Assembly: GCA_963804165.1 (NCBI GenBank)
Contig: CAWDPO010000003.1
Coordinates: forward strand, 256,359 to 320,358
Reading direction: 5' to 3'
Length of the DNA: 64,000 nt
From: an uncultured delta proteobacterium
Lineage (GTDB): Bacteria; Desulfobacterota; Binatia; UBA9968
Part shown: piece after piece, positions 44,740 to 59,374 of the stretch
Layout: every line of letters begins with the position of its first letter
Position numbering within the stretch: position 1 is the stretch's first letter
The notes under the pieces: model-generated
The model's input: the letters and a program-made list of their open reading frames with translations, nothing else
Databases searched by the model: none
Told to the model about the DNA's origin: nothing
Program-made: the position numbers and the translations under genes

Positions 44740-44843
44740 TGTCATTCTGAGGAGCCTGCGACGAAGAATCTGGTTTTTCTTTTTCATGGGATTGGGGAGA
44801 TGCACCGAGCAAAGCAGATCCTTCGCTAGCGCTCAGGATGACA
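44740..44843. repeat. TGTCATTCTGAG..GAAGAATCT REP doublet
   Basis: Inverted pair TGTCATTCTGAGGAGCCTGCGACGAAGAATCT / AGATCCTTCGCTAGCGCTCAGGATGACA; same family at 55151-55250 and flanking the IS110. Confidence 0.8.
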
Positions 44844-57780: not shown

Positions 57781-57869
57781 CGAGCTCGGTTACTGGGGTG
57801 TTAAGCAAATTAGTGGAGGAGAGATTCTTCGCCTTCGGCTCATCTATGAAAGCTTTGTCAAGGTATCTG

Positions 57870-58048
57870 TTAGTCACATATTGTTTTTTCTTCTCATGGT
57901 TTCGAATACACCAGTACTTATCGTCCGTGGCAAAGCGTACCCGATGTTATCGGACTCATCTATTCGCCGTCTAAAGCGGCAGAGAAAAATGCCACAGGGC
58001 TGTCGCAATCAGAATTCGGGTCTCAGTGGACCCATGAGCCGCGCGCGC
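57870..58048 (-). ncRNA. Putative bridge/seek RNA of the IS
   Basis: CGGCTCA-stem-ATTCTGA matches both target strands; ATAGATGA-stem-CGCTTT matches the circle junction; 3' boundary approximate. Confidence 0.75.
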
Positions 58049-59089
58049 TTAGCCCTGCGTGGACGACATCGGTTCGCGATAGCTTTCTCCTTTTTTCAAC
58101 ATCCAGAAACTCGCCTCCGCCAAGTGTCGGGCCACGGCCACAATCGCTTTGCCGTGCCCCCGTCTGGCTTTGACATTTTCATACAGCCGGGCAACGTGTC
58201 GGTACTGGCAGCGCTCGCGGTTGAGCACCGCGCTATTGGCCGCTTCGGTAAAGGCCCACTTCAGATAAAGATTCACATCCTTTCTCACCCGCCCGTAGCG
58301 CACCTTGCCGCCACTGGAGTTCTCCCGGGGTACCAGCCCCGCGTAACTCGCCAGCTGCTCGGCTCGGCCAAAGCGCTCGATCGTACCGATCTCAGTCCAG
58401 ATCACCACCGCCAACATCTCACCCACTCCTGGCTCGCTCTGCAAATAAGTCGTCTCGGCACAGGGAGCAAAGGCTTGGCGCATTTGGCCTTCAATGGTCT
58501 TGAGATTGGCCTGCACATGGTCGAGCTCGTCGAGCATCAATCGCAGCGCTTGTTGGGTGTGCGGTGGCAGCTTGGAGCAAAGCTCTTCGATGATCTGTCG
58601 GCCCCGCTTGCCAAAGGCGTCGCTGACGCCGTCGACCTTGAGCCCGTACTTCTCCAGAGTGGCGTGAATACGGTTCTTGAACTGGGTTCTCTGCTTGCTG
58701 AGCACCATGCGGGTGCGCGGCAGCTCGCGGGCATCACGAACCGCAGACGGCGCAATCCACACCGTCGGCAGGGTTCCGACTCTCTGCAAACGATTCATTC
58801 CCTTCGCATCGAGCTTGTCGCTCTTGTTCACGCTGCCGATCATCAGCTTGGCCAGTCGTGCGTTGACCAGTTGCGGCGATCCTTTCCCCGCCTCGATCTC
58901 ATCGACTACCCAGTACCAGTTGCCCACGGTCTCAACCGCCACCGGGGTTCCCGGACTCCACTTGTTGGTGAAGTTCTTAATCGTTCCTCGACTATGCGCC
59001 AGTTTACACTCAAAGAGCTTCTGGCCTTGGTCATTTTCTACCCGCGCCCAGGTGTAATGCTTATGAACATCCAATGCGACGTATTCCAT
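58049..59089 (-). CDS. IS110-family DEDD recombinase/transposase
   Basis: YVALDVHK, VAVET, KSDKLDA (DEDD); PGVG, YAGLVP, SSGG serine loop; GGAGGAGG RBS. Confidence 0.95.
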   Translation of the reverse strand: MEYVALDVHKHYTWARVENDQGQKLFECKLAHSRGTIKNFTNKWSPGTPVAVETVGNWYWVVDEIEAGKGSPQLVNARLAKLMIGSVNKSDKLDAKGMNRLQRVGTLPTVWIAPSAVRDARELPRTRMVLSKQRTQFKNRIHATLEKYGLKVDGVSDAFGKRGRQIIEELCSKLPPHTQQALRLMLDELDHVQANLKTIEGQMRQAFAPCAETTYLQSEPGVGEMLAVVIWTEIGTIERFGRAEQLASYAGLVPRENSSGGKVRYGRVRKDVNLYLKWAFTEAANSAVLNRERCQYRHVARLYENVKARRGHGKAIVAVARHLAEASFWMLKKGESYREPMSSTQG

Positions 59090-59374
59090 TTGCGATTTCC
59101 TCCTCCAGCCGTCAGTCTATCTACCGACGCTGCGGATTTCATCGCTTTCATATTAATCAGAATGACACTCTGAGTGAGATTGTCGTCTTGGAGGACACGG
59201 GAGTGAAGCTCTGTCGGAGCCCTTCGACCGCGCTCAGGGCGAACGGAAAAGCGCTAAATTTCTGATCAGAGCCTACCGTTCGTGGTGAGCCAAGTCGAAC
59301 CATGAACGGTGTTTCTACAGCTTGACGAAGCGGAGAATCTGCTTTGGTTTGAGTCATTGGTTTGTAAGGAGTCG

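Follow-up and report, generated by a model that had tools for sequence, protein, structure and literature searches.

An IS1111-type insertion sequence of an uncultured delta proteobacterium and the downstream RNA predicted to guide its insertion into REP sequences

Organization of the insertion sequence and its insertion site

The window analyzed in this study, a stretch of 64,000 nucleotides (nt) of contig CAWDPO010000003.1 (assembly GCA_963804165.1) from an uncultured delta proteobacterium, harbors on its minus strand an insertion sequence (IS) of the IS1111 type. Read along that strand, the locus comprises TGTCATTC-TGA, a left end beginning with TTAATATGAAAGCG, an open reading frame (ORF) of 346 amino acids (aa) which specifies the recombinase, a 206-nt noncoding region, and a right end terminating in GCTTTCATAGA-TGA and followed by GCCGAAGGCGAAGAATCT. 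The original prediction, made from these letters alone, held that the noncoding region encodes a bridge RNA matching both the target of the element, a repetitive extragenic palindrome (REP), and its donor junction. From the analysis presented here, and in particular from the covariation of guides and flanking sequences among relatives, we consider it highly probable that target choice is directed by guides within this RNA.

The insertion point lies inside a REP, at TGTCATTC-TG-AGCCG. On the minus strand, the left flank TGTCATTC occupies positions 59167 to 59160 and is followed by TGA, while the right end, CATAGA-TGA, is followed by GCCGAAGGCGAAGAATCT at 57839 to 57822; the presence of TGA at both junctions leaves the element boundary ambiguous by 2 to 3 nt. 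The proposed insertion into a member of a REP family, and the empty site deduced from it, could be read directly from these flanks, and the reconstructed 29-nt empty site stands uninterrupted at position 86658 of contig C20 in the element's own genome assembly (46 contigs, 7.5 Mb, completeness 81%, contamination 5%). REPs of the same family (GTCATTCTGA) are present elsewhere in the window, at 44741 (plus strand) and 55240 (minus strand), as had been proposed, with loop sequences which differ from that of the target. Contigs of one DNA sequencing run break at 57836 and 59167, as is expected for a repeat.

The recombinase matches the Pfam domain PF01548 (4.9e-13, residues 4 to 148) and, in its C-terminal domain, PF02371 (2e-21), as well as the NCBIfam model NF033542, "IS110 family RNA-guided transposase" (234.9 bits, cutoff 140), and PDB matches were obtained to chains of IS621 (5.8e-12) and ISCro4 (7.7e-11). 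Residues D7, E53, D91, and D94, which are invariant in eight aligned relatives, represent candidates for the DEDD catalytic residues, while the motif GLVPRENSSG, bearing the conserved serine (G--P----SG), is kept in relatives and aligns to the serine motif of IS621. The length of the protein falls within the IS1111-group range of 330 to 350 aa, and the distribution of noncoding sequence, with 206 nt 3′ of the stop codon versus 68 nt 5′ of the start codon, corresponds to the IS1111 layout. The subterminal inverted repeats are perfect over 9 bp (11 of 13 positions if lengthened), and the terminal extensions outside them total 9 nt, which is compatible with a 6 + 3 pattern; for IS1111 elements, repeats of 7 to 17 bp (usually 11 to 13 bp) and extensions of 7 or 6 bp on the left and 3 bp on the right have been described (PMC11187229, PMC11208160). 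Every IS1111-group character examined was found, with the exception of full-length relatedness, for which the evidence is a tblastn alignment to an IS4321-family transposase that spans residues 1 to 337 at an identity of only 22.6%. On the basis of these sequence characters, the feature is very likely an IS1111-group member of the RNA-guided IS110 family, and the complete, apparently intact element originally proposed is supported by its domains, ORF, and invariant residues. The highest protein identity encountered among 72,556 plasmids was 33%.

Target guides and their covariation with the flanking sequences

The noncoding region contains, on the minus strand, the heptamers CGGCTCA (58041 to 58035) and ATTCTGA (58015 to 58009) and the octamer ATAGATGA (57963 to 57956), which are its only matches of at least 7 nt to the target or to the joined ends. 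The first two agree with one and the other of the target's strands, as the original prediction stated, and both core-spanning heptamers occurred together with a probability of 0.0024 in 20,000 shuffles. In the 5′-to-3′ direction, the top-strand-complementary CGGCTCA precedes ATTCTGA, an order retained in all aligned relatives and described for IS1111 elements, in which the top-strand-complementary segment is located 5′ of the other (PMC11187229).

Relatives were drawn from a genome scan (21 loci with 25 to 92% protein identity, in metagenome-assembled genomes labelled Binatia, Nitrospirota, Chloroflexota, and others) and from a metagenome scan, of which the best 80 of 550 relatives were used. 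Following the removal of 5 fragmentary or distant loci, 108 were kept; the RNA core was recognized by pattern in 86 of these, and the remaining 22, being truncated or diverged, were dropped. The covariation counts ignore the relatedness of the loci. The 5′ guide was compared with the right flank in 67 pairs (58 unique pairs, 42 unique guides), giving a mean match of 5.05 of 7 positions versus 2.51 with shuffled flanks (standard deviation 0.195, maximum 3.4, 0 of 10,000 shuffles as high), with matches declining from 42/42 at position +1 to 19/42 at +7. The 3′ guide (26 unique guides) matched the left flank at 4.46 of 7 positions versus 2.33 after shuffling (again 0 of 10,000 as high); here the matches are concentrated at positions −4 to −1 (22, 26, 25, and 24 of 26), with only 4, 4, and 11 of 26 at −7, −6, and −5. 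Covariation of guide and flank across homologs, suggested as a check of the original prediction, is thus seen for both target guides.

The same REP family holds 32 of the 61 external relatives for which a left flank was available, with the variable REP base being tracked by the guide in 30/32. Targets which are not REPs are tracked as well, including AACC-TG-GATGCC, GCCTC-TG-AGCAGGC, and a tRNA-like 3′ end. The 42 5′ guides and 26 3′ guides supplied by nature read out the guide code for the subfamily, composed of 4 nt on the left, TG, and approximately 5 to 7 nt on the right.

Among the 58 unique pairs, the right-end TG is followed by A in 45, by G in 10, by C in 2, and by T in 1, and this base is matched by the 5′ guide in 58/58, whereas the left end carries A after TG in 70/70 loci. 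Because the former follows the target while the latter is always A, the shared crossover core of the family is TG. The 3-nt TGA core originally proposed is therefore present at both junctions of the window copy, where the third base is shared because the interrupted REP reads TGAG, and is reduced to a dinucleotide in the family as a whole.

Four relatives deserve separate description with regard to their sites. L095 and L111, from metagenomes and with 55% protein identity, interrupt a site composed of GGTTCGAATCCCGT and TG-GAGCCACCA, and their guides match this site, which resembles the T-arm and 3′ acceptor end of a tRNA gene whose CCA is encoded; L108 and L109 possess a similar right flank, GGGCCACCA. 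In two further loci of approximately 85 to 94% identity, L030 and L046, the element is truncated such that the recombinase end and target loop are kept and the RNA breaks off after helix P1. The inverted left end of another copy is located approximately 250 nt downstream of L030, an arrangement which suggests nested or rearranged insertions.

Predicted secondary structure of the guide RNA

An alignment of 49 nonredundant RNAs (pairwise identity below 93%) supports five helices, termed P0, P1, P1b, P2, and P3 (Table 1), in which 95.7% of alignment cells are paired and 18 of 30 base pairs are changed on both sides. None of 500 shuffles scored as high as this fold, and shifting the partners cut pairing to 32 to 43%. 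The 5′ strands of P0 and P1 coincide with the final codons of the recombinase gene. The GGGTC/GACCC stem noted originally between the target guides, here part of P2, is real: it shows compensatory changes in relatives and is replaced by GAGCC/GGCTC, through two compensatory changes, in the type B sister element described below. A promoter and terminator scan marked the P2 hairpin as terminator-like, which we read as a pattern match only.

A second stem of the original prediction, CCGAT/ATCGG, did not hold, being paired in 70% of cells with a covariation score that 28 of 500 shuffles reached; this stretch is instead explained as the 3′ strand of P0, a long-range helix formed with the end of the recombinase gene.

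Table 1. Features of the insertion sequence in the window and of its sister copies elsewhere in the genome
Feature	Position	Strand	Basis
Whole insertion sequence, 1317 bp with one TG copy	57843..59159	minus	Junction reading, genome copies, empty alleles
Left half of interrupted REP, TGTCATTC; last 4 nt (ATTC) match the 3′ target guide	59160..59167	minus	Flank reading, covariation
Right half of interrupted REP, AGCCGAAGGCGAAGAATCT; AGCCG matches the 5′ target guide	57822..57840	minus	Flank reading, covariation
TAATAT, −10 half of predicted junction promoter	59150..59155	minus	Good −35 missing upstream in all 11 listed integrated copies
Left subterminal inverted repeat, TATGAAAGC	59144..59152	minus	9 nt, 100% complementary to 57845-57853
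Ribosome-binding site, GGAGGAGG	59106-59099	minus	Upstream of recombinase gene
Recombinase gene, 346 aa	58049..59089	minus	ORF, domain matches, residue conservation
Core of the predicted bridge/seek RNA, 128 nt or more, with the last recombinase codons as its first 19 nt	57943..58070	minus	Alignment, covariation
P0, 5′ strand, pairs with 57951-57943	58062..58070	minus	90.4% of cells paired; 4/7 pairs changed on both sides
P1, 5′ strand, GCAGGGCT; last base is the T of the stop codon; pairs with 58001-57994	58051..58058	minus	8/8 pairs changed on both sides
P1b	58047-58044 with 58007-58004	minus	Alignment helix
5′ (right) target guide, CGCGGCTCA, complementary to top strand TG-AGCCG(CG)	58035..58043	minus	Short match, covariation
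P2 hairpin (UGGGUC/GACCCG) between target guides, 58034-58029 with 58022-58017	58017..58034	minus	Compensatory changes
3′ (left) target guide, ATTC-TG, then an invariant A	58009..58015	minus	Short match, covariation
Possible right donor guide, CATTTTTCTCT, complementary to TG + left end at 7/11, discontiguous	57981..57991	minus	Weakly supported
P3 hairpin (UGCCG/CGGCG), 57981-57977 with 57969-57965	57965..57981	minus	Covariation, helix 5
Left donor guide (predicted), AATAGA-TG-A, same as right end + core	57956..57964	minus	Short match, right-end tracking
P0, 3′ strand, GATAACATC; overlaps the CCGAT/ATCGG stem originally proposed	57943..57951	minus	Covariation
TTGACA, −35 half of predicted junction promoter	57856..57861	minus	17 nt from TAATAT on joined ends; kept in relatives
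Right subterminal inverted repeat, GCTTTCATA	57845..57853	minus	Perfect 9-bp complement of left repeat
Type B copies (L007-L010)	C17:395901-397244; C20:85263-86607; C36:38386-39728; C41:95423-96765		Own genome, outside window

Proposed recognition of the element ends

The stretch which follows P3, AATAGATG, is the same as the right end plus TG, in agreement with the earlier assignment of ATAGATGA as a copy of the right end and core, and this identity is tracked in relatives. Right end and guide are paired as CATAGA/AATAGA at 45 loci, CAGATA/AAGATA at 15, and CAGAGA/AAGAGA at 2; of 64 loci, 62 thus have a donor guide that tracks the right end, and the other two display a single mismatch each. 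A fourth variant (TACA) is found in L028, where the right end ...CATACATG is accompanied by the guide AATACATG. In 57/64 loci, the donor-guide base that comes after TG is identical to the first base of the target, nine G-G cases all belonging to one subgroup, which is only a hint, by analogy, at a handshake position of the kind described for IS621 (PMC13626964). Taken together, donor guidance via ATAGATG is probable.

Of the 11 positions in the sequence preceding P3 (57991 to 57981), 7 are complementary to TG plus the left end. Across 23 unique combinations, left-end positions 4 to 8 and 1 and the core G pair, while positions 2 and 3 and the core T are unpaired; left-end position 5 matches in 16/23 versus 9.1 expected, a value reached by 15 of 5,000 shuffles when relatedness is ignored. 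In a distant subgroup, (CC)ATCA occupies the corresponding place and forms a contiguous complement of TGAT(GG). From these sequence comparisons, 57991 to 57981 might serve as the right donor guide, an assignment which we put forward tentatively. The bispecific RNA originally proposed is thus supported with respect to both target strands and the right end, and unsupported in the component assigned to the left end, namely CGCTTT (57937 to 57932), which was to pair with AAAGCG of the left subterminal repeat. This hexamer occurs also at 57978 to 57973, is replaced by CGCAGG in type B although the left-end AAAGCG is unchanged there, and is unconserved in the 49 aligned relatives.

A perfect 9-nt inverted repeat connects the CGCTTTGCC stretch (57929 to 57937) with 58145 to 58153 inside the recombinase gene; this complement was considered as a candidate and is taken as chance.

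The principal alternative holds that the RNA guides the target only, as in the seekRNA model, with the protein reading the ends via the subterminal repeats and the ATAGATGA match being no working guide. For ISEc11, an 82-nt seekRNA with target matches was enough for movement, and the account of that system reports target matches only (PMC11187229), by analogy with which the donor part may be dispensable in the IS1111 group. Several properties of the element weigh in the same direction: the donor-guide covariation rests on four variants that cluster by subfamily, the complement to the left end is poor and its pairing discontiguous, and only left-end position 5 varies enough to be informative. 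Set against this are the tracking of the right end across three variants plus the fourth, the placement of the donor guide relative to P3, which is that of the left target guide relative to P2, the covariation of P0, which encloses the donor part, and the donor and target loops reported in IS1111 elements by Durrant et al. (PMC11208160). On balance, recognition of the target only is unlikely, and an RNA with both target and donor guides is preferred.

Genomic copies, a sister element, and empty sites

The element of the window, here designated type A, is represented in its own genome by four full copies, one copy interrupted where its contig stops, a decayed one on contig C30 (48 differences, with an ORF that ends at 222 aa), and one fragment on C22. 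Five of the ORFs are intact and four copies are 0 to 1 nt apart, the window copy being identical to that at C17:220395 and 1 nt from two others. The left flank reads (T)GTCATT(C/T)-TGA in 7/7 copies, the decayed copy and fragment included, and the right flank consists of a REP half in four of the five available (GCCGA, GCCGC twice, and GCGTT), the fifth, that of C30, reading GCCC followed by unrelated sequence. Insertion at unrelated sites, the observation named in advance as contrary to the original prediction, was not what this mapping revealed, as type A copies occupy the same REP position.

A sister element, type B, is 82% identical to type A and is present in four copies, three of which possess intact ORFs, that at C20:85263 being decayed. 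All four are preceded by TGTCATGC-TGA, corresponding to REPs of the ATGC subtype, and followed by GCAA (three copies) or ACGA (one). The type B guides read ATGCTGA (3′) and TCGCTCA (5′). One intact copy, at C17:395901, carries an extra base within the donor guide (ATAGCATGA).

Positions 1 to 6926 of contig C25 are colinear with 82150 to 89976 of C20 at 97.0 to 98.6% identity and carry neither the type B element (C20 85274 to 86581) nor the type A element (from C20 89977 up to the end of that contig). The empty type B site reads TGTCATGC-TGA-GCAATGCGAAGCATCT, with GCAATG after TGA, and the empty type A site reads TGTCATTC-TGA-GCCGCAGGCGAAGAATCT, with GCCGCA after TGA. As these empty alleles are read across both sites, insertion, which is specific in site and in orientation, is seen to be precise, with no sequence added apart from the shared TG(A). 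The occurrence of one locus in filled and empty form implies that the bin holds two strains or a duplicated region.

Predicted junction promoter, expression, and proposed mechanism

On the joined ends of a circularized element, TTGACA and TAATAT would be separated by 17 nt, and no comparable −35 is present in the integrated copies, an arrangement which fits the published model in which mRNA and guide RNA are cotranscribed from the circle by a junction promoter (PMC11187229, PMC12288879). In keeping with this, a promoter and terminator scan identified no minus-strand promoter within the integrated element. By analogy with published relatives and from the observed covariation, we propose that the element leaves as a circle whose joined ends form the TTGACA-17-TAATAT promoter, from which the recombinase mRNA would be transcribed together with the structured RNA, the latter corresponding to approximately 58070 to 57943 in the 3′ part of the mRNA. 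P1 and P1b are predicted to close an internal loop presenting the two target guides, which together would specify approximately 11 to 13 bp. In a second loop, closed by P0, AATAGATG would match the right end plus TG, and the stretch across P3 would be complementary in part to the left end; the complex of recombinase and RNA is then presumed to exchange strands at TG.

Certain observations speak against this scheme. One type A copy is located at TGAGCGTT, to which the guides match imperfectly, and the type B 5′ guide specifies TGAGCGA where its sites read TGAGCAA (three copies) or TGAACGA (one). The single-sequence fold of 58052 to 57900 has an energy of −44.3 kcal/mol (z = 0.00 versus shuffles), and a scan of Rfam 15 at E values up to 10 gave no relevant match, the presence in it of a model for this RNA class not being established; its sole output was a sub-threshold L31-leader match on the opposite strand. 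Within the element, contigs of three metatranscriptome runs cover only 58684 to 58960, in the recombinase gene, at 90 to 99% likeness, and otherwise include flank pieces, with no transcript cover on the RNA region and with no ends visible in the contigs. These pieces may derive from relatives, and they are evidence neither for nor against expression of the RNA.

That the window copy is an inactive relic in which only the pattern of guides survives could be argued from the absence of transcript cover on the RNA region, from the lack of a good −35 upstream of the −10 in the integrated copy, and from the decayed copies on C30, on C22, and at C20:85263. This is improbable in view of the near identity of the type A copies, the intact ORF with all of its invariant residues, and filled and empty alleles which differ within approximately 1.5% divergence; on sequence grounds, the window copy is a real, intact, and recently mobile element. 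Less probable still is that the guide-like matches represent chance or a REP fragment captured inside the element, with site choice left solely to the protein or to the structure of REP DNA, since, although each match is only 7 nt long, a palindromic REP eases short matches to both strands, and the fold energy is unremarkable, this notion is already contradicted by the target-guide covariation, which extends to non-REP targets, by the low joint shuffling probability of the two heptamers, and by a sister element which differs in the exact guide base that distinguishes its REP subfamily.

Comparison with characterized systems

The location of the guide RNA after the gene in IS1111 elements, a pair of target matches arranged as in the present element, and REP targeting by ISPa11 have been reported (Siddiquee et al. 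2024, PMC11187229; Durrant et al. 2024, PMC11208160), as have the natural redirection of ISEc11/ISXne4 and right-end bridge RNAs predicted for 93% of IS1111 elements (PMC11187229, PMC11208160). The mechanism, the downstream RNA location, REP targeting, and natural retargeting are accordingly already published, and the present element represents a new and clean case of a mechanism described in 2024 rather than a new mechanism.

ISPa11, an IS1111-family element of Pseudomonas aeruginosa compared here through its description only, likewise targets a REP and possesses a noncoding region after the gene, with the top-strand-complementary segment in the 5′ position (PMC11187229). Its seekRNA copurifies with the transposase (PMC11187229). 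It differs in REP family and host lineage. ISEc11 and ISXne4, also of the IS1111 family, are characterized by a seekRNA after the gene and a circle junction promoter, both of which are predicted for our element as well, and by redirection through guide replacement (PMC11187229, PMC12288879). The type A/type B pair represents the same phenomenon; unlike in ISEc11/ISXne4, however, it involves one left-guide base (T to G) together with right-guide changes within one genome, and the target of ISEc11 is a short linear site rather than a REP.

IS621 (IS110 group; PDB 8WT6) resembles the present element in its DEDD and serine domains and in its REP target, and its RNA, like the one predicted here, has two loops, each bearing guides for both strands with a 2-nt core included, the right donor guide pairing discontiguously as does the candidate in our element (PMC11208160). 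Unlike here, IS621 encodes its RNA upstream, within the left end, with the guides in reverse order and CT in place of TG as the core; furthermore, the protein alignment is significant only over C-terminal residues 192 to 337, and the predicted donor loop of our element differs in being multibranched, with a closing helix that reaches into the coding sequence. IS4321/IS5075 (IS1111 family), to which the protein aligns over the full length at the low identity given above, have a transposon inverted repeat as target, unlike the REP observed here. IS4321 shares subterminal inverted repeats and a noncoding region after the gene, and a reading of that region by eye identified no RNA motif in common with our element. 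Finally, ISPpu9 and ISPpu10 of Pseudomonas putida are IS110-family elements which occupy a fixed REP position, often in REP pairs, and form circles by a dinucleotide crossover (PMC12288879); ISPpu9 differs in belonging to the IS110 group, with its RNA upstream, a strong promoter of its own, and extra small RNAs.

It is conceivable, if doubtful, that the uncultured-soil clade, with at least 550 metagenome relatives and at most 33% identity to the plasmid collection, constitutes a separate IS1111 subfamily whose RNA has a design of its own. Were this so, the protein C terminus and the RNA would be coconstrained, given that the 5′ strand of P0 consists of recombinase codons, and the bases 3′ of TG in the two "left" guides may be handshake positions, this base being always A in the left target guide, as is the first left-end base. 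The clade would also have been retargeted dozens of times, as reflected in its 42 distinct 5′ guides, three REP subfamilies, and tRNA-like 3′ ends, with two siblings in one genome reading one different REP base.

With its mechanism already known, the element is of value as an example and for its data set: it appears to be an active and compact IS1111-type system (346 aa plus an RNA of approximately 130 nt) from uncultured soil bacteria, for which filled and empty alleles of one locus are on hand, along with an in-genome sister that differs in one left-guide base and reads another REP subfamily. The covariation-backed secondary structure of an RNA which the Rfam scan did not detect, and the guide code, could help in annotating RNAs of this kind and in selecting IS1111-type enzymes for bridge editing; the three corrections made here, to core length, stem, and second donor guide, concern details that would mislead an experiment in guide design.

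The REP target family and neighboring repeats

The REP motif TGTCATNCTGA has 175 copies in the genome, with N being T in 78, C in 73, and G in 24. Most of these copies have a nonmatching right half, and the exact 11-mer ATTCTGAGCCG is free at only 6 genome sites, 5 of them REPs. The target, termed a multicopy safe harbor in the original prediction, is thus multicopy, but modestly so. As DNA hairpins, the REP examples in the window have energies of −0.2 and −3.7 kcal/mol, no better than shuffles.

Convergent REP pairs approximately 25 to 35 nt apart and of mixed subtypes (ATTC, ATGC, and ATCC), resembling bacterial interspersed mosaic elements (BIMEs) or REP doublets forming hairpins (REPINs), were seen beside the copies at C3:197045, C17:220395, C20:85263, C17:395901, and C36:38386, while no partner REP is present within 70 nt of the window copy. 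A division of the two halves of REP pairs between types A and B was considered and rejected, the partner REPs being of mixed subtypes.

Two further repeats adjoin copies of the element. A second short repeat family (…GGTTCGAC…GCTCACCACGAACGG…) lies beside the left side of the window copy, at 59209 to 59290 on the minus strand, an interval which shows the top contig depth in the DNA sequencing run; CTCACCACGAACGG of this family has 14 copies in the genome, and similar sequence is found beside the decayed C30 copy. The sequence CAGACTGTGTGAAAA, with 16 copies in the genome, adjoins IS ends in several places, being present at the right flank of the C30 copy (C30:69025), at the right flank of L052, and at loose contig ends in run X1, and it may represent the terminus of some other repeat or mobile element.

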